64,000 bases of DNA, taken from assembly GCF_041886205.1 (NCBI RefSeq), contig NZ_CP169029.1. One strand, written 5' to 3'. This DNA is from Escherichia coli. Its GTDB lineage: Bacteria > Pseudomonadota > Gammaproteobacteria > Enterobacterales > Enterobacteriaceae. A model generated the notes under the pieces. The model was not told the DNA's origin and did not search any database. It saw nothing but the letters and a program-made list of their open reading frames with translations. This document shows positions 18,578 through 48,906 of this stretch, piece after piece. Position numbers and translations under genes: made by a program. The number at the start of each line of letters is the position of its first letter. The first letter of the stretch is position 1.

Positions 18578-18622
18578 CACAACCAGGCACTTACTGGCCG
18601 GTTATCCATGTCTATATTATAT

Positions 18623-18850
18623 TTACATCACGTCAGTTTTCATAAAGGCTGTGAACAGCCAGTAAATCAGGCCACTGAATACCAGCCACAGCACAACTAG
18701 GGCTGCAACCCTCACAGGGATATCACACTCTTCCGGCACTTTTTCCACAGCCATACTGCACAGATGGACTGTCATAACAGAAATCATCACAACAGCAAGG
18801 ATATGAATGAAAAGAAAAACGACTTTCATTTTCCGGAAATGCATATACAA
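18623..18850 (-). CDS. small hydrophobic (membrane) protein, hypothetical
   Basis: 75-aa ORF with two predicted transmembrane stretches; no family recognised. Confidence 0.25.
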   Translation of the reverse strand: MYMHFRKMKVVFLFIHILAVVMISVMTVHLCSMAVEKVPEECDIPVRVAALVVLWLVFSGLIYWLFTAFMKTDVM

Positions 18851-19162
18851 ACCCTGACTCAGCCTGTCCTGTCTTTCCTGATCCTCTGTAATCTTAACTT
18901 ATCCATGCGCTGACGAAGTCTGCCCGGAACACGCCCGCTCTTTCTTGAAATATGAGCACAGATAAAATCTTCAAGCAGAAAATGCATGTCCTGCATTACC
19001 ACATCTTCTTTTTTGTCTTTCACTGAAAAATGCCTGACAAAATCGCTCATGAAAATGTTTCTGAAACGCTGTTATCCAGCTTCAGAAACCGGTACTGCCT
19101 TCACCAACACAAATCATTTTGTTGTCACTGTCTGACCTGTTCTCCCCTCCCGGAACTCGCTG

Positions 19163-20197
19163 TTACTGATAGGAAAATGTAAATGTTGATATTCCGTTAA
19201 CCGTACCCGGATTAATTCCCTCACCAGTATTCACATACTTTACATACAACCGGACTGAGGGTGACGTTTCCGTTCCTGTTGATAACTGCCACTGGTTTTC
19301 ATTTCCCTTTACCGGCGAATCAGGTCCAAACTTCAGGGGCGTACTGTCAGTGTTTTTGTATATTCTCAGCCCGACTCCGGTTGCAGTCGATGCCCCCGTC
19401 AGTGTGAGTATATCGCTTCTGTTGGACGGTGTGGTCGCATCAGTCAGTGTTGCCCATACTGTTACTCCGGCATCACACTGTAATTTCAGTGATGTTGTCC
19501 CGGCGACAACTTCATCACCGGATGATGGCAGTTGTCCGGCAGAAATTGCAGCCAGGCTGACATTGACTGCGGAAGGTGTCAGTAATCTGCACGATGTTAC
19601 TGTGTCATTCAGCGTAAATGGATTCAGGCTGAAATTCACTGTGGTCTGAACACTGCCTGCAGATGAACCGTTATAGGGCCTCATTCTGATACTCCCGATG
19701 CTGGTCTTCTGTACACTGTATCGCGCAGAGGAATTTCTTTTTAAAATTACAGGTGTTACACGAACAGACAGTCCCTGGGTTGATGCAGTATTAGCTCCGA
19801 CACACCATCCGGAAAAGACATTTTCCCATGAGTTTCCGCTCATCGCGGTACCCCTGGAATAATTCGTGTCCCCCATCCATATAAGGAGCCCCACCTCCTC
19901 TGTCAGCCCATAAATACTCTGCCCGTCAAGACTGCCAACCACGGGTAAATCCACTTTCCCGTCCAGCCCGACACAAAATCCCTTAGAAATACGCCAGACA
20001 TTTGCATTCTGATATCCAATGTTGTTACCGGTATTATAGACAAATGGCAGGTTATCCATTGCATGAGTTCTGGAATAAGAGCCTGGAGATGGTCCCACAT
20101 CGTTTTCCGTACTGCCAATAAATGAAACTGCCGCCTGACTGATATTGCAGCAAACCAGAATGAATACAGCCAGAAAGACCTTATAAAAATTTGTCAT
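19163..20197 (-). CDS. fimbrial tip adhesin, F17-G-like two-domain adhesin (344 aa)
   Basis: Signal peptide, then an N-terminal lectin-like domain and a C-terminal pilin domain; last gene of a major pilin/chaperone/usher/adhesin operon. Confidence 0.7.
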
Positions 20198-20198
20198 A

Positions 20199-22736
20199 TT
20201 ATTGCCTCATGCATACTACATGATGGTTTTCCGGAACAGCATTTCCCCTGGCATTTTCTCCGGACGCACTATAGTGAATGACACAACTGTCATTCTGCCC
20301 GCTTCCCCAGACTATCCTGAGCATCCCTTTTTCAGCATCCAGGTCACGTACAAATAACCGGCCTCCCTGAGCAATGTAGCCTGCAGATTTCCCGTCTGCT
20401 GTTAATGCTTCCGCGGCCATCGGCGGCGGCGTTCCGTCCGGCATCTTCACATCAAACAACATGGCTTTCCCCGTTTTTGTTGTGAAGGTCACCATGGTGG
20501 TACTGTTGGCCCGGGGAATAATTTCCCGCTCTGTTGCAGACAGTTCCACATCCGCAGCCAGCGCTGTCGGGTCGATACTGATATAATTCTTTTCGTAAGG
20601 TGTGACATACGGAACAATGCCGTTACCCCAGGGGTCCAGCCGGTTACCCGGCGCATTATTAATCACCGCCCCACCGGCACCATCAGCATGAATAACGGTA
20701 AATGTGTCACCAAGGTCATTACTGGCCGTCACACCAAACGGATGCGCCACTATTGCCCCGGATATACCGGCAGATATCTGACGGTTATGGCGACTGTCAT
20801 TCCCTGCCGTGGCCTGCAGGGTGGCCACCGGTGAACGATAACTGCCATTCACCGCATACCCTGTCGGTCCGTTTTCCTGGGTGTTCAGGGACACACCATA
20901 TGACAACTGATTGTCATCCCCGCTGACACCACTGATACTGCTCTGAATGCTGTTACTGTTTTTATCGCTGACATTCACTGTCGTGGACAGCAACGTCCTT
21001 CCCGTATCTGAAAGTGGCAGGGAAAAACTGAAAAAGAACCGGTTATCATGATGATAATCACCACTCCGTCGGGTCTGGGAAAAGCCAATCTGGTAACTCA
21101 TTTTTTTCCAGACGTTGTTATAACCGGCCTGGTACTCATTGAATGTCCCTGTATGTCCCCAGTAATGATAAGTGGCTCCGGTCAGATACAGGTTTCCCCA
21201 TCCCTCACCAAGACTCTGGTTCACAGTCAGTTGCAACTGATTCCTTGGCCGGTAACCAGTTGCACTCCTGACCGATGAATCATTAATCACATCACGATTC
21301 CTGGTCAGGATGGCATCCCGAAGACTCCAGAAGTCACGGGATGAATAACGGTAAGCCGCCAGCGTCACATTTGTACTGGTTTCCGGTATTCGTGCACTGT
21401 AACCGGCATGCAGGCTGTAGCCGCGATGTGTCGTGTCAGAACCCGGGAAAGTCGTTCTGGCCAGCGTAATATCCGTGGCAACAGCCCCCAGTGGTGTATT
21501 GAATGCCACACCACCCAGCCCTGACAGATAATGAGGTGCGGTACTCATCCCCGTATTCAGGGTGATATCATTTGTCAGCCCGTACTGCAGGGTCCCCTGG
21601 AATACGGTATCGCTGAATGTCCTGTTACCGTAACGATAACGCCCGGCTGCCACCTGCCAGCGACTGAACCCCGGGCGAACCAGTTGTGCAACCGAAGCAA
21701 ACGGCACGATAAAACTCCTGGTCTGTCCGTCTGACTCTGTCACAGTGACTGTCAGGTCACCACCATATCCACTGGGATAAAGGTCACTGATGGAGAAAGG
21801 CCCTGCCGGCACGGTAGTTTCATAAATAATGTTACCGTTCTGCCGGACAGTAACCCTGGCGTTACTTCCGGCCATCCCCCGAACCACAGGGGCATAACCA
21901 CGCAACGAACCCGGCAGCATCCGGTCATCAGAAGCCAGTCTTATTCCCCTGAGGCTGTTACTGTCCATAAGCTCACCTGTGGTGGTGAAATCCCCCAGTG
22001 TCAGTTGCGCACGCAACATGGCTATGTCGTGCTGAAGGTTCGTTTCAATACTCCGGTAACCTTCTGCATGACCGTCACTCCAGCTTTCTGTCCCCCGGTG
22101 ACGAAATGCCCAGCCTCCTGCGTTAAAGCCGGCACGAAGACCAAGATAACTCTGATTATTTTCCATATCGGGCGTCCGGTAACGCCAGTGATTCACGTCA
22201 TAACTGACAAAGGCAGCCGGCACCCCCGTCTGCCACTGAGAAGGTGATATGTATCCCCGTGGACGGGAAACCAGCATGGCCTGCGGAATTTCAACATTCA
22301 GCCGCAGCAGTGACAGGTCAAAACGGATTTTGGCATCAGGTACAACTGCAGAAAATGGCATGCAACGACCATTTCCGGTATCCGGTTCACGGGCAACGGC
22401 CTCGGGTGACACATCCAGAATGGATAACAGTTCCGGCGTCACACACAGAACACTCTCCTCCTGTGAAGAGGACATATCACGGAATGACAATTCCGCATTT
22501 CCTTTCCATTCACCGTTCAGATAAATGTCTGAATAATAATTCCCTGAGGGAACAGGATTCCCGTGCGTGAAACGACGGACATCAATCACACTGCTCCCTG
22601 GCGTGCGGCTCAGAAAACTCGGGTCAAATTCTGCATCCTCTGCCGCCCACAAAGGCGCAGACAGCATATAAAGTCCCGGCAGACAACATAAATAAATGAC
22701 ACGATATTTCAGACCGGATAAAGAATAATGACTCAC
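20199..22736 (-). CDS. fimbrial outer-membrane usher (845 aa)
   Basis: Size and position between the chaperone and adhesin genes; typical usher length. Confidence 0.85.
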
Positions 22737-22749
22737 TTACGGGCCCTTA

Positions 22750-23472
22750 TTATTTCAGAACGGATTCACCTTTCTGGTAACCACCATTATCATTCACCAC
22801 CGTCCATTCCACTTTTCCTGACGGAGAAACCTTCTGCTTCAGTCTGAAAGTGACAGATGAAAACGGTGCGGCCATCCCCCCCTGAGTACTGCTGACTTTC
22901 TGAGCTCCCTGTCCGACACTGACAGTACTGAAGGTAATAAAATAAGGCGTGGGATTACTGGCCTGAAGGGTATCACCGCCTGTAAGCTGCCATGTCACTT
23001 TCTTATATGCATCATCAGGAGAAAAAGGCAGACCATCAGGACGGAAAAAAAACTTAATCCGGGTGCGTACGGCAAACTGAAGGTAATTATATCCCTGTGC
23101 TTTTTCAGATTTTCCGGCAAAAGAAGGTTTGGCCGGAATATCAAGAACATTCAGCCAGAACAGTGATTCCCTGTCTGCCGGAAGTTTTTCTCCCGTATAC
23201 ATAATTCGCATTGTCTGTCCGGAAAGCGGCTCCATCCGGAAAACAGGAGGCGTAATAATAAACGGCACCCTGACAGAGTCAGGAGGGGAAGACGGGTCCC
23301 CTGTATCAAGCCATGCCTGTATCAGGGATGGCGTACTGTCTCCGTTATTCAGCCGGACATTAATACTTTTTTGTTCTGCAGGATAAATAACCCTGGTCCC
23401 CATAATAACCACACTGCCATATGAGGGCAGAGACAAAAGAACGGTAAAAATGAACAGCAGAATATGTTTCAT
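22750..23472 (-). CDS. periplasmic fimbrial chaperone (PapD-like)
   Basis: Start MKHILLFIFTVLLSLPSYG at 23472 with a GGAG RBS; about 240 aa, immediately upstream of the usher. Confidence 0.85.
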   Translation of the reverse strand: MKHILLFIFTVLLSLPSYGSVVIMGTRVIYPAEQKSINVRLNNGDSTPSLIQAWLDTGDPSSPPDSVRVPFIITPPVFRMEPLSGQTMRIMYTGEKLPADRESLFWLNVLDIPAKPSFAGKSEKAQGYNYLQFAVRTRIKFFFRPDGLPFSPDDAYKKVTWQLTGGDTLQASNPTPYFITFSTVSVGQGAQKVSSTQGGMAAPFSSVTFRLKQKVSPSGKVEWTVVNDNGGYQKGESVLK

Positions 23473-23539
23473 ACAGGCTCCGTAAACACGGGGCAAAATG
23501 CCCCGTGAACACTTAAGAAGGCAGGTATTAAGATAAAAA

Positions 23540-24088
23540 TTACTGATAAGCGATGGTGTAATTCACAGTGGCAGAAACGTTGCCGGCGGTGGCCTGACCT
23601 GTTGCATAGTACTGTGCGTTATAACGTAATGTCATTGCGTCATTATTAATAACAACAGGTGTTACTCCCTGATTAGCAGAATCATTACCAAGTAGTATCT
23701 GTGTGGTACCATCAGCATTCAGAAGCTGAATCTGGACTTTTGTTGCGTTACCAGAGCCACTACTTGAAATATTAAGGTTATGGCTATCATAATCAGTGGT
23801 CGCATTAGGCTCAAAATAAGCCTTCACACTTTGAGCTCCTGTAGCGGCAGCAGTATTACACCCACTCAGTGAAATTGTGAAAGGAGTAAGGCCTGCTACC
23901 TTCCCGGTTGAATCTAATGATTTTGTGGAGACAGTTGGTAGTGTAACTGTCAAGGGATCGGTTCCTGTAGTAACAGAACAAGTTTGATCAACAACTTTTC
24001 CATTAAAAGTAATTGTACCGTCATAAGCAAGTGTAGCAGAAGATGACGCAGCCGCCAGTATTCCAAGGATAAATTGAATTTTCCGCAT
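23540..24088 (-). CDS. major fimbrial subunit, F17-A-like pilin (182 aa)
   Basis: MRKIQFILGILAAASSSATLAYDGTITFNGKVVDQTCSV...NYTIAYQ resembles F17 major pilins (resemblance judged from memory, no alignment run). Confidence 0.8.
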   Translation of the reverse strand: MRKIQFILGILAAASSSATLAYDGTITFNGKVVDQTCSVTTGTDPLTVTLPTVSTKSLDSTGKVAGLTPFTISLSGCNTAAATGAQSVKAYFEPNATTDYDSHNLNISSSGSGNATKVQIQLLNADGTTQILLGNDSANQGVTPVVINNDAMTLRYNAQYYATGQATAGNVSATVNYTIAYQ

Positions 24089-24227
24089 AGAATCCTCAGT
24101 GAAACTGATAAGAATATATCATGAAAACAGCAGCAATTAAGAATTTAACTTAATATATTAAGAATAAATTTAATTGCCTATATACAAGATTATCCATAGT
24201 TAAAAAAACTCTCAAAACGTTAAAAAC

Positions 24228-24294
24228 GATCGATATTTCAATTTTGATAGATAAAAGCTATCAATAAACAAATTAACGATCGGTTGTAACGATC
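24228..24294. promoter_or_regulatory. cluster of three GATC (Dam) sites in ACGATCG contexts in the AT-rich region upstream of the fimbrial operon; candidate methylation-dependent switch
   Basis: GATC at 24228, 24278 and 24291, each within ACGATCG[AG]T. Confidence 0.3.
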
Positions 24295-25091
24295 GATAAA
24301 ATATATGAATCAACGTTGCCAAATAAAATAACACATCTGCAAAATAAAACTTTTTCATATTCAATAAATTAATTTCTATTTGTAACTATTACTTTTGATC
24401 ATGTATACGTTTTTAATCATAAATAATGATAATTAGCTTAGTTGATTATATAAAGGCTGTTTAGCCTGTGTTTAAGTTTTCATTTTTGTGAATTAAATCA
24501 CAAACAAGGATTTTCTGCGAATATAAATATATATAAAGTAAGATATATTATGTGCGTGTTTTATGCAGTTTATTTTTATTATCCCTATTTTCTGCAAAAC
24601 AACATATTAATCACTCTATCCATTTCTGACTCAGTTCCTTTTCTGTTCCAGGAAACCATTCATCATATTGCAGGAGAACACTCTCTGCGGGGAAATGGGA
24701 TGCAGAAACTTACAGACTACTGGCAACTTTAAATCTGTTTTTTCCGTTCAAAACGTGGGGGGATATAAGACCATACAGTGTCCAGCCAGGAAAAGTAACA
24801 ATAAAGCGCTACAGCATGGCTTCTTCCCCGGAAGAGTAGAGCGTAAAGAAGCTGTACATCACACCAATAAAGGAAACTGCCTGCACTTTTTCGCATCAGC
24901 CGTATTCTGAACAATCACCAGTGCCGCCCTCAACAGAATATACAGTATGATGATTTGGCTACCATGGCCAGGTTAACCAGTACGTTACGATGACTGTGCT
25001 GAGACATACTTATGGTCATCGTAAGCGTACAGCCTGAACCGTCTGGTCAGAATCTGACGAATTAGACAAAGTGGTGTCCACCAAATAAGTA

Positions 25092-25493
25092 GTGGGAACC
25101 AAAGTATCAGATATGCAGAAAAATGTGACTCCCGCCAGGCGAAAAGGCTGCCCTAATTATCCTCCCGAATTTAAACAGCAGCTCGTTGCTGCCTCCTGTG
25201 ACCCCGGGATATCCATCTCAAAACTTGCTCTTGAAAATGGCATTAACGCCAATCTGTTGTTCAAATGGCGACAACAATGGCGCGAGGGAAAGCTGCTATT
25301 ACCTTCTTCAGAGAGCCCCCAGCTACTTCCTGTGACTCTTGATGCAGTTGCCGAACAGCCAGAATCGCTCGCAGAGGACCCGGAAACCCTCAGTATCAGT
25401 TGTGAGGTAACGTTCCGGCACGGGACGCTCCGCTTCAATGGCAATGTCAGCGAAAAGCTCCTGACTCTGCTGATACAGGAACTGAAGCGATGA
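25092..25493 (+). CDS. tnpA: IS66-family TnpA
   Basis: 133-aa ORF, HTH region ...ISISKLALENGINANLLFKWRQQW... Confidence 0.85.
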   Translation: MGTKVSDMQKNVTPARRKGCPNYPPEFKQQLVAASCDPGISISKLALENGINANLLFKWRQQWREGKLLLPSSESPQLLPVTLDAVAEQPESLAEDPETLSISCEVTFRHGTLRFNGNVSEKLLTLLIQELKR

Positions 25494-25837
25494 TCCCGTT
25501 ACCTTCCGGGACCAAAATTTGGCTGGTTGCCGGTATCACCGATATGAGAAATGGCTTCAACGGCCTGGCTGCGAAAGTACAGACGGAGCTGAAAGACGAT
25601 CCCATGTCCGGCCATGTTTTCATTTTCCGGGGCCGCAGCGGTAGTCAGGTTAAACTGCTGTGGTCCACCGGTGACGGACTGTGCCTCCTGACCAAACGGC
25701 TGGAGCGTGGGCGCTTCGCCTGGCCGTCAGCCCGTGATGGCAAAGTGTTCCTTACGCAGGCGCAACTGGCGATGCTGCTGGAGGGTATAGTCTGGATGCA
25801 ACCGGGAAGGTCGAAAAGTAATAGTCTGCGGATCTGA
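25490..25837 (+). CDS. tnpB: IS66-family TnpB
   Basis: 115 aa, nearly identical to 14208..14558 over most of its length. Confidence 0.85.
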   Translation: MIPLPSGTKIWLVAGITDMRNGFNGLAAKVQTELKDDPMSGHVFIFRGRSGSQVKLLWSTGDGLCLLTKRLERGRFAWPSARDGKVFLTQAQLAMLLEGIVWMQPGRSKSNSLRI

Positions 25838-25856
25838 ATCCCTTTACCTGGGCAGG

Positions 25857-26443
25857 ATGAAAAATATCCCGCTTCCTGATAATATCGACCAGCTGAAAGC
25901 CCTGTTGCGTCAGCAGCAGGTTGCTGTGGAACAGCTAAATGTTACCATGAAAAAGCAGCAGGCCCGGCTGCGCCAGTACGCCGGACAGGTTGCCGACTAC
26001 GAACAGGAAATCGAACGGCTGAAGGCACAGCTTGATAAGTTGATAAGCTGCGGCGGATGCTGTTCGGGCAGAGTTCAGAGAAAAGCCGCAATAAACTGGA
26101 AAATAAAATCCGCCAGGCAGAGAAGCGGCTGGCTGAGCTGGAAAACCGTCTTGCAGCGGCAAAACGCTGTCTGCAGGACGATGAGCCCACTGTCAGTACG
26201 GTTGAGCAGGCAGAGCCCCCGGTGGCGGTCGCCCCACAGGACCGGCCTGCACGCCGCTCCCGTCGTCAGAAACTGCCGGCAGACCTGCCACGTGAAACCC
26301 GGCGCATCACCCCGACAGTGACTGTCTGCCCGAAATGCGGCGGCGACCTGAAGGTGATGAGTGAAACCGTCTCAGAGCAACTGGAGATAATCCGCAGCGC
26401 CTTTAAGGTCATCGAAACGGTGCGCCCGAAGCTGGCCTGCAGC
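25857..26443 (+). pseudogene. tnpC: IS66-family TnpC, N-terminal part, frameshifted by an 8-bp duplication and truncated
   Basis: MKNIPLPDNIDQLKALL...QLDKL then frame shifts at the duplicated TTGATAAG (26033..26048); continues in the 26057 frame (MLFGQSSEKSRNKL...CPKCGGDL...) and ends at the junction with cdiA. Confidence 0.75.
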
Positions 26444-29400
26444 GGTGTGCTTGTTGGTTCCGCCCTGAATACACAGTCACAGACCCTGACCAACAGTGGT
26501 CTGTTGCAGGGGGAGGCCTCACTCACCGTTAACACACAGAGGCTTGATAATCAGCAGAACGGCACGCTGTACAGTGCTGCAGACCTGACGCTGGATATAC
26601 CGGACATCCGCAACAGCGGGCTTATCACCGGTGATAATGGTTTAACGTTAAACACTGCCTCCCTCAGCAATCCGGGAAAAATCATCGCTGACACGCTGAA
26701 CGTCAGGGCGACCACGCTGGATGGTGATGGTCTGTTGCAGGGCGCCGGTGCACTGGCGCTTGCAGGCGACACCCTCTCACAGGGCCGTAACGGACGCTGG
26801 CTGACGGCGGGCGACCTCTCCCTCCGGGGTAAAACACTGCATACCGCAGGGACCATGCAGGGACAGAATCTCACCGTGCAGGCGGACAACTGGGCGAACA
26901 GTGGCTCCGTGCTGGCAACCGGTAACCTTACTGCTTCGGCAACCGGTCAGTTGACCAGTACCGGCGATATCATGAGCCAGGGTGACACCACGCTGAACGC
27001 AGCCACCACGGACAACCGGGGCAGTCTGCTTTCGGCCGGCACGCTCTCTCTTGATGGAAATTCACTGGATAACAGCGGCACTGTCCAGGGTAACCATGTC
27101 ACGCTTCACCACAGAAGCACTGACAACAGCGGTACGGTCACGGGGCTGAGCGGTCTGACCCTGCACAGCGCGGACGGGCTTACCAACAGTGGCGCGCTGC
27201 TGAGCCAGAACTCGCTGGCGCTGAGCGCAGGAGATGTGACCAACAGCGGCCGGATTCAGGGGCAGAACATCACTCTGGATGCCAGCAGCCTGACCAGCAG
27301 CGGTGCTGTTCAGAGTGCGCTGGATTTGGCTCTGACCCTGAGTGGCGATGTTATTGCTGCCACCGGCAGCAAAATTACCGCCATGGGCGATGCCCGCCTG
27401 ACCGGGAAAGTGCTGGGTAACCAGGGATTAATCAGCGCGAAGACGCTGGAAGTGAATGGTGATTCGCTCAGCAACAGTGGCGAAATCAGTGGTGTTAACA
27501 GCCTGAACGTGACACTCAGTGGTAATCTGCAACAGCACGGTAAAATGCTGACAGGCGGTGCATTAAACGTCAACGCCAGAGACATCAGCAATAGTGGGCA
27601 GCTTCAGGGGGCGGATAACCGAATCACCGCCAGTTCGCTGACCAACTCAGGTCGTGTGCAGGGCGACAGCGGGCTGACTCTTACATTGCTGAATGCCCTG
27701 ACCAACCAGACCAGCGGTGTGCTTCTCAGCCAGAACGTATCAGCGCTTTCCGCACCCGTGCTGACCAATGACGGCACCATTCAGGGCAACGGTAAAACCA
27801 CGCTCAGCGCGGCAACGCAGGCCCACAACAGTGGCAAGATTCTTTCCGGCGGTGAGCTGACGTTCACCACGCCGGACTACAGTGGCAGTGGCTGGCTACA
27901 GGCCACTGACCTGCTGCTGAACGTGGCGAAGCTTGCCGGTAATGGCACTGTGATGGCGGCGAATCAGGCAACGCTCACAGGTAACAGTCTGACCAACCGT
28001 GGCCTGTTCCAGGCCGCACAACTGAACGTCAACACGCAGACCATCACCAACAGCGGCACGCTGCTGGGTAATCAGGGCCTGACAATAAAAGGGAACAGCC
28101 TGAACAACGCCGGCGGGAAGGTATTCAGCGGCGGTGATATGCTTGCTGATATGGTCTCGCTCAGCGGCGCGGGCCAGCTGGTTGCACTCGGTAACCTGAC
28201 GCTGAAGCTCACCCGTGGTTTGACAGCACAGGGCGTTATCGCCGCGAATAAACAACTCTCCGTCAGCAGCCAGGGTGATATTACCAATGGCGCCACATTG
28301 CAGGGCAACGGTATCACGCTGAATGCGGCGGGCAGGCTGACCAACAATGGCCAGTTGACCGCCGGCAACGGCACCACGGCACTGAGCGGCAGCGGGATTG
28401 CGATGAATGCCAGCGGCAGCCTGCAGGCAGGCGGGGACGTCAGTCTGACCAGCCGGGGGGATATCACTCTCGACGGTTTTACCGGCACGACGGGTAGTCT
28501 GATGTTAACGGCCGCCGGGTCAGTCATTAACGCCGCACTGTTGTATGCGGGCAATAACCTCTCGCTGTTTGCCAGCACCATCCGGAACCATCACGGCGAT
28601 ATGCTGGCGGGTGACAGCCTGGTGATGCAGAAAGATGTCAGTGGTGCCGCGAATGCTGAAGTGATTAATACCTCCGGGAATATCGAAACCACCCGCGGTG
28701 ATATCACCATCAGAACCGGACATTTACTGAATCAGCGGGAGGGTATAAATGAGACAAAATCATACATTCCGGTTGAGAATGTCGCAGTACCTGATGGTGC
28801 AAATTCTGTTTCAGTCAGAGTGGGCGATTTAGGTGAAGATGGATGGGGATATTATGTGAAGTCCTGGAGCGGTACTGCCGGTGGTGGTTTTGAGGCATGG
28901 GCCGTTCCGACTGAAAAGGGAGCCACCCGGAAATTTCTGACTGGCACAACACGCGTCGATGTTGGTGCAACAGGGGGGGATGCCAGAATTTCGGCCGGGA
29001 ATAATCTGCTGATTGACGCGGACAAACTGGATAATACGGGAAGTCATCTTCTTGCCAGCGAGTTTGTCAGCCTGTCGGGTTCACAACTGAATAATCAGTC
29101 CTTCTTTGGCTATACACAGGATGAATACAATGTGTATCGCTATTACGGCAAACTGGCCATGATCCCCAACGACGGGCATCTGCAGTATGGAGATGCTTCT
29201 GCCGATGATCGCGTTACCTTTACTCTCTCCGGAGCTCCGGAATATGTCACCAGAGACACCGGTCAGGCTCTGAGAGCCGTGATTCAGGCAGGCAAAAATG
29301 TCACTGCCGTTTTTTCCAGTGATATCAGTAATACATCCACAACCTCAAATGCAGGACGGATCACAAATACCCTTGCGGCACCTGAAATTAACACGCCGGC

Positions 29401-29553
29401 AGAGAAAAATATCAGCCCGGGAATGGCTCAACTGGCGCCGGATGGCACAGAGACGCTGACCGTCACGGCCCCGGACTGGACTGACACCATTACCCGTCTG
29501 ACGATCGGCAGTGGTACGGACCTGGCTTCCGGCATCGTGGTGGGGAACTATCC
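26444..29553 (+). pseudogene. cdiA: cdiA internal segment (filamentous haemagglutinin-type repeat region), 5'-truncated and fused in frame to the tnpC remnant
   Basis: Long Gly/Asn/Thr/Ser-rich repeat region (...LTNSGLLQGEASLTVNTQRLDNQ...); no cdiB or CdiA secretion domain upstream; interrupted at 29553 by IS186. Confidence 0.8.
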
Positions 29554-30892
29554 CATAAGCGCTAACTTAAGGGTTGTGGTATTACGCCTGATATGATTTA
29601 ACGTGCCGATGAATTACTCTCACGATAACTGGTCAGCAATTCTGGCCCATATTGGTAAGCCCGAAGAACTGGATACTTCGGCACGTAATGCCGGGGCTCT
29701 AACCCGCCGCCGCGAAATTCGTGATGCTGCAACTCTGCTACGTCTGGGGCTGGCTTACGGCCCCGGGGGGATGTCATTACGTGAAGTCACTGCATGGGCT
29801 CAGCTCCATGACGTTGCAACATTATCTGACGTGGCTCTCCTGAAGCGGCTGCGGAATGCCGCCGACTGGTTTGGCATACTTGCCGCACAAACACTTGCTG
29901 TACGCGCCGCAGTTACGGGTTGTACAAGCGGAAAGAGATTGCGTCTTGTCGATGGAACAGCAATCAGTGCGCCCGGGGGCGGCAGCGCTGAATGGCGACT
30001 ACATATGGGATATGATCCTCATACCTGTCAGTTCACTGATTTTGAGCTAACCGACAGCAGAGACGCTGAACGGCTGGACCGATTTGCGCAAACGGCAGAC
30101 GAGATACGCATTGCTGACCGGGGATTCGGTTCGCGTCCCGAATGTATCCGCTCACTTGCTTTTGGAGAAGCTGATTATATCGTCCGGGTTCACTGGCGAG
30201 GATTGCGCTGGTTAACTGCAGAAGGAATGCGCTTTGACATGATGGGTTTTCTGCGCGGGCTGGATTGCGGTAAGAACGGTGAAACCACTGTAATGATAGG
30301 CAATTCAGGTAATAAAAAAGCCGGAGCTCCCTTTCCGGCACGTCTCATTGCCGTATCACTTCCTCCCGAAAAAGCATTAATCAGTAAAACCCGACTGCTC
30401 AGCGAGAATCGTCGAAAAGGACGAGTAGTTCAGGCGGAAACGCTGGAAGCAGCGGGCCATGTGCTATTGCTAACATCATTACCGGAAGATGAATATTCAG
30501 CAGAGCAAGTGGCTGATTGTTACCGTCTGCGATGGCAAATTGAACTGGCTTTTAAGCGGCTCAAAAGTTTGCTGCACCTGGATGCTTTGCGTGCAAAGGA
30601 ACCTGAACTCGCGAAAGCGTGGATATTTGCTAATCTACTCGCCGCATTTTTAATTGACGACATAATCCAGCCATCGCTGGATTTCCCCCCCAGAAGTGCC
30701 GGATCCGAAAAGAAGAACTAACTCGTTGTGGAGAATAACAAAAATGGTCATCTGGAGCTTACAGGTGGCCATTCGTGGGACAGTATCCCTGACAGCCTAC
30801 AAAACGCAATTGAAGAACGCGAGGCATCGTCTTAACGAGGCACCGAGGCGTCGCATTCTTCAGATGGTTCAACCCTTAAGTTAGCGCTTATG
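29554..30892 (+). mobile_element. IS186 (IS4 family), 1339 bp, with a 10-bp target-site duplication GGAACTATCC
   Basis: Terminal inverted repeats CATAAGCGCTAACTTAAGGGTTG (29554) and CAACCCTTAAGTTAGCGCTTATG (ending 30892); GGAACTATCC at 29544-29553 and 30893-30902; the cdiA frame is restored across the insertion. Confidence 0.9.
29609..30721 (+). CDS. insL: IS186 transposase
   Basis: 370-aa product MNYSHDNWSAILAHIGKPEELDTSARNAG... from the ATG at 29609. Confidence 0.9.
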   Translation: MNYSHDNWSAILAHIGKPEELDTSARNAGALTRRREIRDAATLLRLGLAYGPGGMSLREVTAWAQLHDVATLSDVALLKRLRNAADWFGILAAQTLAVRAAVTGCTSGKRLRLVDGTAISAPGGGSAEWRLHMGYDPHTCQFTDFELTDSRDAERLDRFAQTADEIRIADRGFGSRPECIRSLAFGEADYIVRVHWRGLRWLTAEGMRFDMMGFLRGLDCGKNGETTVMIGNSGNKKAGAPFPARLIAVSLPPEKALISKTRLLSENRRKGRVVQAETLEAAGHVLLLTSLPEDEYSAEQVADCYRLRWQIELAFKRLKSLLHLDALRAKEPELAKAWIFANLLAAFLIDDIIQPSLDFPPRSAGSEKKN

Positions 30893-30902
30893 GGAACTAT
30901 CC

Positions 30903-33900
30903 CCTGCCTTCCGGTAACAATGGTTATTTTGTCCCGTCCACGGACCCGGACAGTCCGTATCTGATTACGGTGAATCCGAAACTGGATGGTCTCGGAAAGG
31001 TGGACAGCAGTCTGTTTGCCGGACTGTATGACCTGCTCAGGATGCACCCCGGGCAGGCACCACGTGAAACAGACCCGGCGTATACTGATGATAAACAATT
31101 CCCGGGCTCATCGTATTTTCTTGACCGGCTCGGGCTGAAACCGGAAAAAGATTATCGCTTCCTGGGGGATGCCGCTTTTGATACCCGCTATGTATCGAAC
31201 TATATGCTGAACCAGATCGGGGGGCGCTATATCAACGGGGTTGGTTCAGACACCGACCAGATGCGCTACCTGATGGATAACGCTGCCCGTGCACAGAAGG
31301 CGCTCGGTCTGAAGTTTGGTGTGGCACTGACAGCAGACCAGGTGGCGGCTCTCGACCAAAGTATTCTGTGGTATAAAGCCGTCACGATAAAGGGTCAGAC
31401 GGTGATGGTGCCGGAAGTGTATCTGTCACCGAAAGATGTGACGCTGCAGAACGGCAGTATTATCAGCGGTCAGAATGTGCACCTGGCAGGAGGGAATGTC
31501 ACTAACAGTGGCAGTACCCTGATGGCGCAGAATGATCTCACCATCGACAGCGCTGACAGTCTGGGTAACCTTGAGTCCGGGCTTATAAATGCCGGTGGCG
31601 CTCTCGGACTGAAAGCGATGGGCGATATCAACAATATCAGTGCCACGATTACCGGTAAGACTGTCCGGCTGGAGAGTCTCGCCGGCAATGTCAATAATCT
31701 CACCCGGTACTCACACTGGCAGCTTGATGCACCGGAAGACAGCCTCGCCCTGAAACACACTTATACGGGAAGCATTGCCTCTGTCAGTGCCATGGATAGT
31801 CTGGACATCCGGGCAGATAAAAACATTTCGGTCACAGGGGCAGAAATCAGCGCCGGAGGTCGCGCAGCACTTATTGCCGGCAATGATCTCAGTCTGAATG
31901 CCATTGACAGGGTAAGCAGCAGTCGCCATGCAAACAGTGAATCTCACCAGCGCAGTGCAGAACTTACGACCATTACTGCCGGCGACAGTGTGATGCTGAG
32001 TGCAGGCCGGGATGTGAGCAGTCAGGGTGCAGGTATCGCAGCGGAAGACAACATCACTGTCCGGGCCGGGCGCGACGTTAATCTGCTGGCGGAAGAGTCC
32101 GTGACCGGCAGCAGTTCATACTCGAAAAAGAAAACGGTCATTGATGAAACCGTTCGCCAGCAGGGAACGGAAATCGCCAGCGGTGGTGACACCACCATTA
32201 CTGCAGGACGGGATATCACCGCTGTTGCGTCATCCGTTACCGCAACCGGCAATATCAGTGTGAATGCCGGTCGTGATGTCGCCCTGACCACGGCGACAGA
32301 AAGTGACTATCACTATCTGGAAACGAAGAAAAAAAGCGGAGGTTTTCTCAGTAAGAAAACCACCCACACCATCAGTGAGAACAGTGCCACCCGTGAAGCA
32401 GGCGCCCTGCTGTCGGGGAACCGCGTGACCGTTAACGCCGGTGATAACCTGACAGTACAGGGTTCGGATGTGGTGGCTGACCGGGATGTGTCACTGGCGG
32501 CGGGTAACCATGTTGATGTTCTTGCTGCCACCAATACAGATACGTCCTGGCGCTTTAAGGAAACGAAGAAATCCGGTCTGATGGGTACCGGCGGTATTGG
32601 TTTCACCATTGGCAGCAGTAAGACAACGCACGACCGCCGCGAGGCCGGGACAACGCAGAGTCAGAGTGCCAGCACCATCGGCTCCACTGCCGGTAATGTC
32701 AGTATTACCGCGGGCAAACAGGCTCATATCAGCGGTTCGGATGTGATTGCGAACCGGGATATCCGCATTACCGGTGACAGTGTGGTGGTTGACCCGGGGC
32801 ATGACCGTCGTACTGTGGACGAAAAATTTGAGCAGAAGAAAAGCGGGCTGACGGTTGCCCTTTCCGGCACAGTGGGCAGTGCCATCAATAATGCGGTTAC
32901 CAGTGCACAGGAGACGAAGGAGAGCAGTGACAGCCGTCTGAAAGCCCTGCAGACCACAAAGACAGCGCTGTCTGGTGTGCAGGCCGGACAGGCTGCGGCA
33001 ATGGCCACCGCAACCGGTGACCCGAATGCGACGGGAGTCAGCCTGTCGCTCACCACCCAGAAATCGAAATCACAACAACATTCTGAAAGTGACACAGTAT
33101 CCGGCAGTACGCTGAATGCCGGGAATAATCTGTCTGTTGTCGCAACCGGCAAAAACAGGGGCGATAACCGCGGAGATATTGTGATTGCAGGAAGCCAGCT
33201 TAAGGCCGGTGGTAACACAAGCCTGGATGCCGCGAATGATATTCTGTTGAGTGGCGCTGCAAATACACAAAAAACAACGGGCAGGAACAGCAGCAGTGGC
33301 GGTGGCGTGGGTGTCAGTATCGGTGCCGGTGGTAACGGTGCCGGTATCAGTGTCTTTGCCAGCGTTAATGCGGCAAAAGGCAGCGAGAAAGGTAACGGTA
33401 CTGAGTGGACTGAAACCACAACAGACAGCGGTAAAACCGTCACCATCAACAGTGGTCGGGATACGGTACTGAACGGTGCTCAGGTCAACGGCAACAGGAT
33501 TATCGCCGATGTGGGCCACGACCTGCTGATAAGCAGCCAGCAGGACACCAGTAAGTACGACAGTAAACAGACCAGCGTGGCTGCCGGCGGCAGTTTTACC
33601 TTTGGCTCCATGACCGGCTCAGGTTACATCGCTGCCTCCCGGGATAAGATGAAGAGCCGCTTTGATTCCGTTGCTGAACAAACCGGAATGTTTGCCGGTG
33701 ACGGCGGCTTCGACATTACAGTGGGCAGACATACCCAACTGGATGGTGCGGTGATTGCCTCCACTGCCACACCGGATAAAAACCACCTGGATACCGGAAC
33801 GCTGGGGTTCAGTGACCTTCACAACGAAGCGGATTATAAAGTCAGTCACAGTGGAATCAGTCTGAGCGGTGGTGGCAGCTTCGGGGATAAATTTCAGGGT

Positions 33901-35406
33901 AACATGCCGGGTGGCATGATATCCGCCGGAGGTCACAGCGGACATGCGGAAGGAACGACTCAGGCCGCAGTGGCAGAAGGCACTATCACCATCCGGGACA
34001 GGGACAATCAGAAGCAGAATCTGGCGAACCTGAGCCGTGACCCTGCGCACGCTAATGACAGTATCAGCCCGATATTTGACAAGGAGAAAGAGCAGAGGCG
34101 TCTGCAGACAGTGGGGCTTATCAGTGACATAGGCAGTCAGGTGGCGGATATTGCGCGTACACAGGGAGAACTGAATGCGTTGAAGGCCGCGAAGGAAGCA
34201 ACCGGCGAAACACTTCCTGCTAATGCAACAGAGAAACAACGTCAGGAATATCTTGCGAAACTGCGTGACACGCAGGCTTACAGGAATGAAATGGCGAAGT
34301 ATGGCACTGGTAGTGAAATTCAGCGGGGTATCCAGGTCGCGATGGCAGCGCTTCAGGGCCTGGCGGGCGGCAATATGGCAGGCGCGCTGGCAGGTGCTTC
34401 AGCGCCGGAGCTGGCGAACATCATCGGTCATCACGCGGGTATTGATGACAATACAGCTGCAAAAGCCATTGCCCATGCCATTCTCGGTGGTGTGACAGCA
34501 GCCCTTCAGGGCAACAGTGCGGCAGCAGGCGCAATTGGCGCGGGTACTGGCGAAGTGATCGCGTCAGCCATTGCGAAAAGCCTCTACCCGGACGTAGATC
34601 CGTCGAAACTGACAGAAGAGCAGAAGCAAACTGTAAGCACGCTGGCAACGCTGTCAGCGGGTATGGCCGGCGGTATTGCCAGTGGCGATGTGGCTGGCGC
34701 GGCTGCTGGGGCTGGTGCCGGGAAGAACGTTGTTGAGAATAATTTACTTGGCGGTAGTGAAGATGCTCAGGCTGCGTGGATACGCCAGCATGGTATCGAC
34801 ATGGCGACATGTGCAGAAAACCCTTCCGGTGCCGCCTGCCAGAAAGCAATGAATGAGAGGGATGCTGTAGGGCTGGCTCTGGCAACAGGTACAGTGGCAC
34901 TACTCCCCGGTAGTGCTCAGGCTATGTGGGGACTGGGAGCAAGTGCGAATGCTGGTATCAGTTATCTGGCTGATGGTACTGTAGATCCGGCAAACGCAGC
35001 CATTGCAGGCTGGGTGAATGTGTTCAGCATGGGTAATGGCCTGGCGGGGACTGTGGGCTGGAATGCGGCAGGTGGTGCGCTGGGTAACTGGATCGACAAC
35101 AAAGATCCTCTGTCTGGTGCAATTTCAAATGGTATCGGTTCTGCTGCCGGGTATGGTATCGGTAAAGGTGTTACTTGGGGGACAGATAAGATTACGAATG
35201 CTGTAGGAAAATGGGTGACAAATGGCTGGGATCCTAAGTACGATCCAACATGGATAAAATATGCTGAAGTAAATCGTAACGATATCATTCGAGAAGGCAT
35301 GAAACCGAGCAATGTTCCTGGAACTGCTGGAGATATTGGCGGTTCTATAGGATCTGAGCTAGGTGGAAAAGTAACAGATAAAGTATCTGAGGAACTCAAG
35401 AAATGA
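30903..35406 (+). pseudogene. cdiA: cdiA 3' portion: repeat region, pretoxin region, VENN motif (34732..34743) and a Gly-rich C-terminal toxin domain (CdiA-CT)
   Basis: In-frame continuation of 26444..29553 once IS186 and one duplicate are removed; ...[15 protein letters not shown]... precedes a Gly/Ala-rich CT resembling membrane-acting CdiA-CTs. Confidence 0.8.
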
Positions 35407-35660
35407 AATATTCTTCTCGAGTGGTAATAGGTAAGTTTATTATATGCAGTTCAATTCTCTTATTGTGTTTTATTGGCATGATCTTAGCGGCCATAATAAC
35501 TAAACTAACGTTTGTAGCGTTAGCATGGTTTCAAAGCGGGATTTTTGAAGTTTTGTGGAGCGATATTGTTTATGCTGCTCAGTTGGGTGGTCTGGGGGGG
35601 GGCATATTAGGTTTTTGTTGGGTTTTGTTATATCTTTTTAGGGCAAAGGGCTTTAGTTGA
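35403..35660 (+). CDS. cdiI: CdiI immunity protein (85 aa, integral membrane)
   Basis: Overlaps the cdiA stop (ATGA); hydrophobic small protein [35 protein letters not shown]... Confidence 0.75.
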
Positions 35661-36564
35661 GAATAACTACCTCAGCTACGACGAGGCGCATGCTTTTGAC
35701 AGAGAAATGACGGCCTGTCGTAAAGCGGGTGGAGACTGTGGCGATATTCAGAATAAATATGCTGTATTAAGCGCAGAGAACCGACAGAAATTACACATTG
35801 ATGTGGCTGCAGATCCTCTTACGGCTCTGTCCGGGGAAGATAAATGGAATATTGAGGGCGGACTCAGCGCGGCGGGCCGACCTGGCTGGCTGTATGGTTC
35901 ACTGACTAATCAGGAGGTGAAGGATTACGTGACTGAAGGCAACAGCTACGACCTGAACTATCTGAACAGTAATACGTCGAAGGGTGACAGGGCTCTGGCT
36001 TTCTTCGGGGAACCGGAAAATTACTGGGGTACGGTTGCCGGAGCGGGTTCGTTGTTAACGTCATCAGCCACGCTGACTGAAAAATTTGTCAGTGCCGGGC
36101 TGAGCTATGGGGCTAATGGTGCGGTACAAATTGGTACGGGAAATATCGGTGATAAGTTCGATTATCTCAGTTTCATGATGTCAGGCTTGACTGGTGTAGG
36201 TACAGCCGGGAAAGGATATTACGCTAACCAGTTGTTGGGTGCTGGTAGTGCTTACATGAGCAGCCAGATTGAAGGCCAGGACAGTACCGCATCAGTAGTG
36301 GGTAGCATGGCTGGTACAGGCCTAGGATATAACGTTGGTGCTTCAATTACTAATAAGTTAGAAGCTCAATACATCAAAAATCAACTGGGAATGGACGCCA
36401 GTAAATATTCACTGCAATATTCGGAAAAGTCTATCGGATACGGTATGTATCAAGGCGGACAAATGAGTTCTATACCAGGAACATTTGGTGGATTTGTTGG
36501 TTCATTCGTATCAGAAGGTGCAAGCAGCGCAACGCAAAAAGAAGTTGATGGAGACAAAAAATGA
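35656..36564 (+). CDS. orphan cdiA-CT module 1 (VENN onward; no start codon of its own)
   Basis: Begins [55 protein letters not shown]...; ORF track 35707..36564. Confidence 0.7.
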   Translation, partial: VENNYLSYDEAHAFDREMTACRKAGGDCGDIQNKYAVLSAENRQKLHIDVAADPLTALSGEDKWNIEGGLSAAGRPGWLYGSLTNQEVKDYVTEGNSYDLNYLNSNTSKGDRALAFFGEPENYWGTVAGAGSLLTSSATLTEKFVSAGLSYGANGAVQIGTGNIGDKFDYLSFMMSGLTGVGTAGKGYYANQLLGAGSAYMSSQIEGQDSTASVVGSMAGTGLGYNVGASITNKLEAQYIKNQLGMDASKYSLQYSEKSIGYGMYQGGQMSSIPGTFGGFVGSFVSEGASSATQKEVDGDKK

Positions 36565-36779
36565 AAAAATATCTACTACTTCTTATTAAGTTGTTACTTA
36601 TATCTATAGCTACTTGCTCTATTGGAATAGTGGTTAGTATCTGGCTTATAGCTCGGGAACCAATACCTTCTGAGGTGTATGTAAAATACGGAATAATTGG
36701 CGCAGTAGTTGGCTTATGGGGAGGTGCTGGGATTTGGTTACAACTCTATCTACAAATGCGAAGATACTATCGTAAATAG
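36561..36779 (+). CDS. orphan cdiI immunity 1 (72 aa, membrane)
   Basis: ATGA overlap with the preceding CT; hydrophobic product MKKYLLLLIKLLLISIATCSIGIVVSIWL... Confidence 0.65.
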   Translation: MKKYLLLLIKLLLISIATCSIGIVVSIWLIAREPIPSEVYVKYGIIGAVVGLWGGAGIWLQLYLQMRRYYRK

Positions 36780-36784
36780 TTGTT

Positions 36785-37429
36785 GTTGAGAATAACTCAC
36801 TGGCGCATGTACTGGCAGCAGCGGAAGCGAACAAAGCAGGGACTGCAGAGAAATGGCAGGAAGAGCAGCAGGCTGCGATTAGAGAGGCGTGCAGTGGTGG
36901 TACGCCGGTTTCGTGTGAAACAGCAGTCGCAGCGATGGGAAGTGCAATGGTATGGCCGCTATTGCCAGGGGCGGCAGCCACTACAAGTCTGATAGGTGCA
37001 GGAGCGAATGCCGGCATCGGGTTACTGATTAACGGTGAAGTGAATCCAAATGATGTCATTCTTGGTTACTGGACGGGAGTCTTTACAGCAGGAACTAGGC
37101 TGTGGGGGACGATGGGTGTGAATGCGGCCAGCGGAGCCACATCCAGCTATCTAAAAGGTGATGATCCGCTGAAAGGTGGGGCAATGGGGGGAATGTCGTC
37201 AGGATTAGGATATGGTGCTGGCAAAGTTCTTCAGGGGCAACTCGATAAGTTCATTAATCCAAACTGGAAGAATTGGGAGTGGGTTGATGTTGGTATGGGC
37301 ATATCGAAGCCAATGCCATTAGATCCACTGCCTGGGGTTATCGGCAATATGGGAGGTTCTGCGTCTACAGAATACATCAACGATCGAATAGGAAAATCTT
37401 TGAGTGATAAATCAGGAGATAAGAAATGA
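36785..37429 (+). CDS. orphan cdiA-CT module 2 (VENN onward)
   Basis: Begins VENNSLAHVLAAAEANKAGTAEKWQEEQQAAIREACSGG...; ORF track 36935..37429; Gly-rich CT. Confidence 0.7.
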   Translation, partial: VENNSLAHVLAAAEANKAGTAEKWQEEQQAAIREACSGGTPVSCETAVAAMGSAMVWPLLPGAAATTSLIGAGANAGIGLLINGEVNPNDVILGYWTGVFTAGTRLWGTMGVNAASGATSSYLKGDDPLKGGAMGGMSSGLGYGAGKVLQGQLDKFINPNWKNWEWVDVGMGISKPMPLDPLPGVIGNMGGSASTEYINDRIGKSLSDKSGDKK

Positions 37430-37680
37430 GTTCTTCTGACCGCAAAAAGATCCTGATCCTTTTAATATGCATGGTGACTGGTAGTGCTGTTGGTGTTTTT
37501 ATAACCATACTATCTATGTCTTTATTAATAGATATATATCTATATATCGCAGAAGGTATAAGGTTAGACATGCATACATATAATCTTGAAAAACTTTTTA
37601 AAGTAAGTTCATTCTGTGGTTGTATAGGCGGCGGTGGCTGTTGGTTACTCTATTATCGAAATTATAGAAAAAATAAATAA
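37426..37680 (+). CDS. orphan cdiI immunity 2 (84 aa, membrane)
   Basis: ATGA overlap; MSSSDRKKILILLICMVTGSAVGVFITILSMSLLIDIYL... Confidence 0.65.
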   Translation: MSSSDRKKILILLICMVTGSAVGVFITILSMSLLIDIYLYIAEGIRLDMHTYNLEKLFKVSSFCGCIGGGGCWLLYYRNYRKNK

Positions 37681-37683
37681 TAG

Positions 37684-37809
37684 TTGAGAATAACTACCTC
37701 AGCTACGACGAGGCGCATGCTTTTGACAGAGAAATGACGGCCTGTCGTAAAGCGGGTGGAGACTGTGGCGATATTCAGAATAAATATGCTGTATTAAGCG
37801 CAGAGAACC
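37684..37809 (+). pseudogene. remnant duplicate of the 5' end of orphan cdiA-CT 1, closed by a TAG
   Basis: 37684-37806 matches 35656-35778 ([45 protein letters not shown]) then TAG. Confidence 0.7.

Positions 37810-46936: not shown

Positions 46937-48906
<1,970 letters not shown>

Follow-up and report, generated by a model that had tools for sequence, protein, structure and literature searches.

Known systems related to the locus

Orphan cdiA-CT/cdiI modules have no initiation signals of their own, start just upstream of VENN and lie downstream of a complete cdiBAI locus (Poole et al., 2011; PMC3150448). For IS186, PMC6925257 describes insertion hot spots of the form GGGG(N6/N7)CCCC, one of them in the lon promoter (citing saiSree et al., 2001). 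We found nothing specific in the literature on IS66 TnpC structure or on IS-fused cdiA pseudogenes.

Here, we analysed a 64-kb stretch of Escherichia coli DNA (64,000 nucleotides of contig NZ_CP169029.1, “the window”) in which part of an IS66-family tnpC gene runs in frame into cdiA (Table 1). We are highly confident that this locus, part of a mosaic genomic island of E. coli, is a non-functional relic of a contact-dependent inhibition (CDI) locus, cdiBAI, left by a series of ordinary events.

Table 1. Features of the tnpC–cdiA locus, with positions in the window
Feature	Position	Strand	Details
ISEc22-like left end, tnpA (25113-25493), most of tnpB (from 25490)	25021..25771	+	left inverted repeat (IRL) starts GTAAGCG
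Crossover tract ATGCTGCTGGA	25772..25782	+	common to both IS66-family elements; switch from ISEc22-like to rare IS66
Rare IS66-family fragment	25783..26443	+	tnpB 3′ end and tnpC nt 1-587 (ATG 25857); carries the duplication
ORF from tnpC start codon	25857..26321	+	154 codons; frame lost after codon ~60; no Pfam match
8-bp tandem duplication	26032..26047	+	TTGATAAG x2; tnpC frameshift
Chimeric ORF	26057..29596	+	1,179 codons: TnpC residues ~65-193, CdiA 623-1661, then 14 IS186-encoded codons
TnpC/CdiA junction peptide	within ORF residues 120-140		...RPKLACSGVLVG...
tnpC::cdiA joint	26439..26443	+	5-bp microhomology GCAGC in a 14/19 imperfect match; three-way alignment
cdiA remnant	26444..29554	+	codons 624 to ~1661 (FHA-1 repeats to start of Tyr/Pro-rich segment)
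IS186 (IS186B/IS421)	29555..30891	+	12-bp target duplication GGGAACTATCCC at 29543-29554 and 30892-30903
cdiA 3′ part	30892..35406	+	FHA-2, PT-VENN, C-terminal toxin; Pfam Fil_haemagg_2, PT-VENN
85-aa hydrophobic ORF over cdiA stop codon	35403..35660	+	likely cdiI, by position only

The chimeric reading frame

The start and length of the chimeric ORF, its passage from the TnpC zinc-ribbon region into CdiA and its end in IS186 are all as given in the original prediction. Its stop codon (29594-29596) lies 42 nt into the IS186 copy, and the frame is limited upstream by a TAA at 26036-26038, in the first copy of the duplication. ORF residues 130-1167 share 96% identity with residues 623-1661 of the GmM077 CdiA, in CdiA's own frame, and the length of the ORF is that of the cdiA coding frame and no chance feature. 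Pfam domains in the ORF are LZ_Tnp_IS66, zf-IS66 (profile positions 2-43 of 46) and Fil_haemagg. The zf-IS66 zinc finger is severed inside its second Cys pair, where the TnpC portion ends (KLAC/S). Apart from LZ_Tnp_IS66 and zf-IS66, nothing was detected in the tnpC product; DDE_Tnp_IS66 is absent, and the NCBIfam IS66 transposase model scored 47.5 bits (cutoff 180). Pfam identified no TPS domain (PF05860) in either window ORF, whereas the intact GmM077 CdiA has one at residues 36-288. The PGAP (RefSeq) label for the locus is a frameshifted pseudogene in both complete genomes.

The duplication is found in other genomes without the joint

The duplicated stretch (TTGATAAGTTGATAAG) exists much as originally described, one base to the left of the coordinates first given for it (26033-26048), and it does shift the tnpC frame: the 154-codon ORF from the tnpC start codon runs out of frame after codon ~60. 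The proposal that the duplication created the chimera does not hold, as 15 genomes have the same duplicated tnpC allele at another, unrelated locus. The fusion keeps the native frame of tnpC, so all that the duplication does is deprive the ORF of the first 64 tnpC codons.

Of the 5,426 complete genomes searched, 17 have the allele with the duplication and 15 the allele without it, and this tnpC occurs only under tnpC/IS66-transposase annotations or at the cdiA joint. The allele is annotated as tnpC in 15 of the 15 other genomes with the duplication (the relic-locus position was inspected in strain 135). In strain 135 it lies in a full-length, frameshifted tnpC at a relic IS66 locus adjacent to MarR/sit; the C11 allele lacks the duplication. 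In ZYB39 and JML285, the unduplicated allele is present elsewhere on the chromosome; the ZYB39 copy was confirmed to be at the MarR/sit relic locus, which is the site of all four tnpC copies inspected. Window positions 25784-26443 are identical to the strain 135 relic copy at 659 of 660 positions, duplication included, vs 8 mismatches and an 8-bp indel against the relic copy of ZYB39 itself. By sequence comparison, the duplication is older than the tnpC::cdiA joint.

The strain 135 and C11 copies were used as tnpC references for the breakpoint. A ZYB39 locus (L001, 1709-3280) was considered as an intact tnpC reference and rejected, as it is a distant IS66 relative of no use for placing the breakpoint.

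The joint and the missing 5′ part of the cdi locus

The IS66 segment is itself a hybrid, and therefore more than one event was involved. Its left part has 39-40 of 40 identical positions per 40-nt bin with ISEc22 of strain 61, vs about 50-75% identity per bin with the rare IS66, and includes NCBIfam matches to IS66 TnpA and TnpB. In the alignment, bases specific to ISEc22 extend to 25771, and those specific to the rare element begin at 25783.

The joint connects tnpC nt 587 in frame with cdiA codon 623/624 (cdiA nt 1865-1869). Microhomology of at least 5 bp has a probability of about 0.005 at a random joint. Because the joint happens to be in frame, the cdiA frame extends back through the native tnpC frame as far as the stop made by the duplication. 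We rejected a transposase-mediated adjacent deletion because the breakpoint is within tnpC, 1,102 bp from the IS end as positioned in strain 135.

A tblastn search of the whole window with the GmM077 CdiB gave no match at E ≤ 1e-3, and CdiA residues 1-622 have no counterpart anywhere in the 64 kb. No precursor, with the same tnpC at full length beside an intact cdiBA, occurs among the 5,426 complete genomes, so the deletion is not exactly sizeable; at least about 4.75 kb would have been lost if the element had stood immediately upstream of cdiB.

The cdiA remnant, immunity genes and IS186

The cdiA remnant upstream of IS186 shares 98.4% nucleotide and 96% amino-acid identity with GmM077 cdiA. 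IS186 puts the 3′ part (85% identity with GmM077 CdiA residues 1683-3103) out of frame with the ORF upstream of it. The 85-aa ORF that follows is, judging only from its position, likely the cdiI immunity gene, and it has the strongest Shine-Dalgarno pairing among the starts tested (−6.1 kcal/mol). More orphan toxin/immunity modules are located downstream, at 35707-39556. To judge from orphan modules, the downstream immunity genes are probably what stays useful in the locus.

The IS186 here is 100% identical to IS186B/IS421 copies and is absent from the corresponding ZYB39 site. Its target, GGGGAACTATCCCC, is GGGG-N6-CCCC and matches the GGGG(N6/N7)CCCC consensus (PMC6925257). This cdiA site of IS186 insertion is also filled in two unrelated genomes (N10 and JNEC-KY203). 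A look-up of the 1,179-aa product by exact protein sequence returned nothing on record, so that the IS186-interrupted state of the frame was not seen elsewhere.

Occurrence and decay in different lineages

The duplication and joint were found base-for-base in E. coli ZYB39 and JML285, three NCBI drafts, two Logan run assemblies and one ENA metagenome assembly. These assemblies come from varied groups and methods; two are closed genomes, of Chinese and Japanese origin. The 40-nt joint pattern had no matches in JGI metagenome contigs. Several of the joint-bearing E. coli also have an F17 fimbrial operon adjoining the locus. The joint could serve as a lineage marker for a group of E. coli.

The frame has met different fates. 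In the ZYB39 type it is open without interruption for 2,666 aa, down to the toxin domain; in JML285 it ends at an in-frame stop (LSN*GTIQG); in the window it is split by IS186. With the loss of cdiB, CdiA residues 1-622 and TPS, and the PGAP pseudogene label, this different breakage in three lineages supports the original preference for a scar, left when cdiB and the 5′ end of cdiA were lost, over a working hybrid protein. One observation runs the other way: an unconstrained pseudogene would in time gather lesions, yet the 2,666-aa version is amino-acid-identical on at least 15 contigs. That identity fits recent clonal spread equally well as constraint.

Alternative explanations

An IS- and repeat-rich region can mislead short-read assemblers, and an error at 26,030-26,450 had been named at the outset as what would undo the original prediction. 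The exact 40-nt joint and 46-nt duplication strings recur in nine loci of eight other assemblies, however, and it is very improbable that misassembly of this one genome produced the joint, the duplication or both. We also consider it very unlikely that the chimeric ORF is translated into a functional cytoplasmic TnpC(N-terminal)-CdiA protein, for example an immunity-dependence toxin or a leucine-zipper/zinc-finger regulator. The 2,666 open codons reaching the toxin domain, identical on at least 15 contigs, would suit such a product, as would the IS66 tnpA-tnpB genes upstream in the same orientation, and read-through transcription from the tnpA promoter may occur. However, there is no Shine-Dalgarno-like pairing at ATG 26057 (−1.1 kcal/mol, equalled or bettered by 67% of window ATG triplets) and a consensus scan of 24800-26700 for sigma-70-like promoters found 0 sites vs 1.1 expected; terminator-like sites in this interval are on the minus strand only, at chance level. 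The zinc finger is cut, the DDE domain is missing, and the frame was broken independently in the window and in JML285 with no sign of counter-selection. Very probably, no useful product is translated from the ORF. Even if one were made, it would not be exportable, having no signal peptide, TPS domain or CdiB. It is conceivable, at a very low probability, that transcription from the IS66 promoter and weak translation of the ZYB39-type frame yield a cytoplasmic toxin-bearing CdiA fragment, which would create dependence on the 85-aa immunity gene. If so, a dead CDI locus would act as an addiction module that stabilises the island.

A different history, which we regard as unlikely, involves no simple deletion in cis: a ~660-bp rare-IS66 fragment from another genome would have been patched in, in one step, by short homology at both ends (the 11-bp tnpB tract and GCAGC in cdiA), replacing the ISEc22 3′ part, cdiB and the cdiA 5′ end. 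The short identical tracts on both sides of the fragment, the differences between its allele and the relic copy resident in the same genomes (8 mismatches and the indel in ZYB39) and the lack of a full-length hybrid precursor in the genomes surveyed are consistent with this. But sequential events, or an island built in another host and then transferred, explain the same facts, and the sequence offers nothing to tell one step from two.

We favour a stepwise history. A rare IS66-family element gained the 8-bp duplication in tnpC, inactivating the gene, and a copy of this allele was joined to an ISEc22-like element within the 11-bp identical tract at the tnpB 3′ end; both changes can be read from the alleles. 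Illegitimate recombination at GCAGC then, or before the IS66 exchange, probably produced the joint seen here, with loss of the remaining IS, cdiB and the first 622 cdiA codons, which encode the signal peptide and TPS export domain. Later, as the empty ZYB39 site documents, IS186 entered its consensus target in the window's strain only, shortening the ORF from 2,666 to 1,179 codons.

Gene decay of this kind, associated with IS elements within a mosaic island, is already known, and the case matters little except for annotation. There, the locus should be entered as a cdiA pseudogene joined to a dead IS66 hybrid and not as a coding gene; public collections nevertheless contain a 2,666-aa “protein” that gene callers predict from it. 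It also illustrates neatly how a CDI locus can be taken apart by IS decay, short-homology recombination and IS186 insertion at a hot spot, with survival of the immunity genes.

Comparison with known systems

As in the IS66 family (tnpA-tnpB-tnpC; ISEc22 and relatives), the segment has a GTAAGCG left inverted repeat, tnpA, tnpB and the N-terminal leucine zipper and zinc finger of TnpC. It differs in being a two-element hybrid with a frameshifted tnpC cut at nt 587 in place of the DDE-encoding tnpC the family requires, and in the two terminal inverted repeats which, with an 8-bp target duplication, mark the family: the left is present at 25021 and the right was lost at the joint. Lacking the DDE domain and the right inverted repeat, the hybrid cannot transpose.

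The joint resembles those of microhomology-mediated illegitimate recombination in bacteria, with a perfect 5 bp inside the 14/19 match and neither partner at an IS end. There is no difference of note; a random joint falls in frame with a 1-in-3 chance, and the in-frame outcome is a coincidence of that order.

The IS186 copy has the typical features of this IS4-family element: a size of ~1.34 kb, terminal inverted repeats of 23 bp, a transposase of the IS4 family and a duplicated GGGG(N6/N7)CCCC target, for which 10-12 bp is usual. It is like the hot-spot insertions described in PMC6925257, such as that in the lon promoter, in its consensus target, 12-bp duplication and IS186B identity, and differs from them in that the hot spot is within cdiA coding sequence.

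Of the features of CdiA, a toxin of the TpsA family, the locus retains FHA repeats, PT-VENN and a variable toxin followed by an immunity gene (its function judged by position only); it lacks the signal peptide and TPS domain and an adjacent gene for CdiB (ShlB/FhaC family), and the single unbroken frame is split at 29555-30891 into halves in different frames. As in orphan or 5′-truncated cdiA remnants (PMC3150448), a cdiA fragment without initiation signals is followed by toxin/immunity modules. In contrast to these, the remnant retains ~2,490 CdiA residues and, at its 5′ end, continues the frame of an IS66 tnpC fragment; it starts at codon 623, far upstream of VENN, with no complete cdiBAI before it. 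The cdiA remnant here works like an orphan, yet falls outside the orphan definition.

The chimeric reading frame and its occurrence in other genomes

The original prediction described a frame that opens within tnpC and continues into cdiA, and we recovered it: from ATG 26057 (plus strand) the frame is open over 1,179 codons to 29596, and its stop codon (29594-29596) lies 42 nt into IS186, as proposed. The first 129 residues comprise the leucine-zipper and zinc-finger domains of IS66 TnpC and are followed by haemagglutinin repeats (Pfam); a Pfam search of the product found no TPS secretion domain. The 154-codon frame from the tnpC start codon (25857) of a scarce IS66-family element (the “rare element”) does lose register through a tandem duplication, and stops at 26321. 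The duplication is real, but the coordinates first reported for it (26033-26048) were one base off.

Assembly error had been raised as a possible source of the joint between tnpC and cdiA, and is excluded within the limits of a comparison between assemblies. Over 12900-29554 the window and the ZYB39 chromosome (E. coli; bovine, China) are 100% identical, and over 30892-37798 the match continues with one mismatch; thus, ZYB39 lacks this IS186 copy. Given this absence and a different ISCro1 site, the window derives from a close relative of ZYB39 and not from ZYB39 itself. In JML285 (human, Japan), the duplication and the joint match the window base for base. ZYB39 and JML285 are the only 2 of 5,426 complete E. 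coli genomes with the joint. A protein look-up placed the uninterrupted ZYB39-type product (2,666 aa) on at least 15 further contigs. Sequence was retrieved for six of these loci, of which three are from NCBI draft genomes, two from Logan run assemblies and one from an ENA metagenome assembly; each matches both the 40-nt joint string and the 46-nt duplication string exactly.

Formation of the joint and extent of the deletion

We mapped the joint by aligning the window with the full-length tnpC of strain 135 and the intact cdiA of GmM077 (3,116 aa). The last tnpC-homologous base is 26443, and from 26444 the sequence is cdiA only. The final five bases before the joint, GCAGC (26439-26443), are common to both parents and embedded in a 14/19 imperfect match. 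As microhomology of at least 5 bp is improbable at a random joint (P ~0.005), illegitimate recombination through short homology is indicated. A deletion made by transposase from one end of the IS is ruled out, because the tnpC breakpoint (nt 587, duplication counted) is 1,102 bp short of the element's right end. Within cdiA, unique sequence starts at nt 1870, which opens codon 624, so the fusion keeps CdiA's own frame; that it also preserves the native tnpC frame is a 1-in-3 coincidence.

The proposed loss of cdiB and the cdiA 5′ end is borne out: CdiA residues 1-622 are missing, including the TPS domain (Pfam, residues 36-288 of the intact protein), and tblastn found no match to CdiB in the whole 64 kb. 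Comparison with an intact locus, suggested for sizing the deletion, gave a conditional minimum but no exact size. Under the GmM077 layout the losses sum to ~4.75 kb, a figure valid only if the IS directly adjoined cdiB on the upstream side. No precursor locus occurs in the collection of complete genomes.

Features of the chimeric locus and minimum losses under the GmM077 layout
Feature	Position	Size	Remark
Crossover tract ATGCTGCTGGA	25772-25782	11 bp	tnpB 3′ end; common to both IS66 elements
Tandem duplication	26032-26047		two copies of TTGATAAG
IS186 copy	29555-30891		12-bp target duplication GGGAACTATCCC on either side
Minimum loss: IS		1,102 bp	
Minimum loss: cdiB		1,773 bp	
Minimum loss: spacer		12 bp	
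Minimum loss: cdiA		~1,865 bp	

The IS66 segment, too, is a hybrid: it is ISEc22-like (39-40/40 identity per bin) from the left inverted repeat (25021) as far as 25771, and from 25783 on it is the rare element (40/40 per bin). Together with the joint, this switch leaves two recombination scars ~660 bp apart upstream of cdiA. As a minor alternative to sequential events, a single double-ended short-homology patch could have produced both.

Age and role of the duplication

An exact-string search of complete genomes found the rare element's tnpC in 17 genomes as the allele with the duplication and in 15 as the allele without it. Among the 17 duplicated copies, 15 are annotated as IS66 tnpC and are remote from any cdiA. 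Inspection of one, that of strain 135, showed a frameshifted full-length tnpC; it belongs to a relic IS66 next to the sit operon and a gene of the MarR family. This relic locus also houses the unduplicated copies that were examined, those of C11, 33F4 and ZYB39. Window 25784-26443 is identical to the strain 135 copy at 659/660 positions and differs from the unduplicated alleles by 8-9 substitutions and the indel. Because the duplicated allele occurs away from cdiA in nearly the form of the window fragment, the duplication, on parsimony, was already present before tnpC was joined to cdiA.

Contrary to the original suggestion, the duplication did not create the chimera. With the joint in the native tnpC frame, all that the duplication does to the chimeric frame is to introduce an in-frame TAA (26036-26038), at the cost of the first 64 tnpC codons. 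Both ZYB39 and JML285 carry an unduplicated allele elsewhere in the chromosome (confirmed at the relic locus for ZYB39), and these resident copies were not the source of the fragment. Two origins would fit: assembly of the island elsewhere, or import of the fragment.

Decay of the locus

Nothing suggests that the chimeric frame is used. The 17 nt upstream of ATG 26057 (26037-26053) have an anti-Shine-Dalgarno pairing of only -1.1 kcal/mol, a value that 67% of the window's ATG triplets equal or exceed; the two cdiI-like starts tested pair more strongly (-6.1 at 35403 and -5.4 at 39170). No sigma-70-like promoter was matched within 24800-26700. The TnpC portion is missing its N-terminus, is cut inside the second zinc-finger cysteine pair and has no DDE domain. 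The CdiA portion would be unable to reach the cell surface, since signal peptide, TPS domain and CdiB are all absent. Three lineages have three frame states: 2,666 uninterrupted codons in the ZYB39 type, a split by IS186 in the window and, in JML285, an in-frame stop (LSN*GTIQG) that ends the frame after 578 codons. In ZYB39 and JML285, the two closed genomes, PGAP labels the entire locus a frameshifted pseudogene. In favor of use, the 2,666-aa version is identical on at least 15 contigs, but recent clonal spread explains this without selection. The suggestion of a deletion marker, rather than a working hybrid, therefore holds, and the locus is ordinary IS-associated gene decay, already in RefSeq as a pseudogene.

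JML285 (L002 13875-17821 versus window 27145-32140) has the joint and the initial ~700 bp of the cdiA remnant in common with the window. Beyond window position 27145 its cdiA is recombined to a different type, with a middle (receptor-binding) region that is ~77% identical to the window or unalignable, and 97% identity again afterwards. Given this pattern, either the pseudogene recombined with another cdiA class after the joint formed, or recombination moved the joint.

Two further complete genomes, whose flanks differ, have IS186 at exactly this cdiA site (window 29543-30903) and likewise oriented: N10 (NZ_CM165902.1; L010 9001-10440) and JNEC-KY203 (NZ_AP045179.1; L011 9001-10441). N10 retains an intact cdiB and cdiA 5′ end, and in ZYB39, the nearest relative of the window, the site is empty. 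As GGGGAACTATCCCC is a perfect IS186 consensus target, this looks like recurrent hot-spot inactivation of cdiA. The shared site could also reflect common descent followed by recombination, since N10 and the window differ at only ~6 positions over 26920-32500.

The surrounding island

Direct repeats of IS66 tnpA/tnpB (13989-14516 and 25271-25795, 98.3% identical) bracket an F17 fimbrial operon and its neighbors. JML285 has one repeat copy and is missing the intervening 10.75 kb (window 14517-25270), as would fit homologous recombination across the two repeats that either deleted or inserted the F17 block. The IS66-family element ISCro1 is sited differently in the two genomes: the window has a copy at 49234-51933 (2.7 kb, 98.5% identical, inverted), whereas the ZYB39 insertion point at 37798 (37791-37798) is empty in the window; we infer from this that IS activity in their lineage has been recent.

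Downstream of cdiA, 35403-39556 holds an array in which every short toxin-like ORF has a small ORF behind it; most of the small ORFs are hydrophobic (85, 72 and 84 aa), and a further one has 128 aa. A 409-aa fragment at 37944-39173 has a VENN motif, and a related contig's counterparts of the 37944-39556 pair match Pfam PT-VENN/Ntox28 and CdiI_3. The arrangement is typical of orphan toxin/immunity arrays. Near 40482-41294 there is a gene with a reverse-transcriptase domain, and ~44,600-48,900 contains IS21 and IS481 elements. Window ~52000-64000 corresponds to ZYB39 NZ_CP098234.1 4461600-4473700 in reverse. By the ZYB39 annotation, the right-hand part encodes a CBASS oligonucleotide cyclase cluster (with a 3′-5′ exonuclease, a WYL-domain protein and a nucleosidase-family protein) and a 4.96-kb AAA-domain gene.

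Comparison with known systems

Compared with a functional CdiA, the locus has neither TPS domain nor CdiB and its frame is interrupted; compared with a functional IS66 element, both the DDE domain and the right end are absent. Orphan cdiA-CT/cdiI modules consist of toxin fragments that lack initiation signals, together with immunity genes that can still be expressed (Poole et al., 2011; PMC3150448). The locus falls outside that definition because ~2,490 residues of CdiA remain and no complete cdiBAI lies ahead of it, but it behaves like such modules, several of which lie downstream (35707-39556). The IS186 copy is typical of its family, and its target GGGGAACTATCCCC matches the published preference, GGGG(N6/N7)CCCC (PMC6925257).
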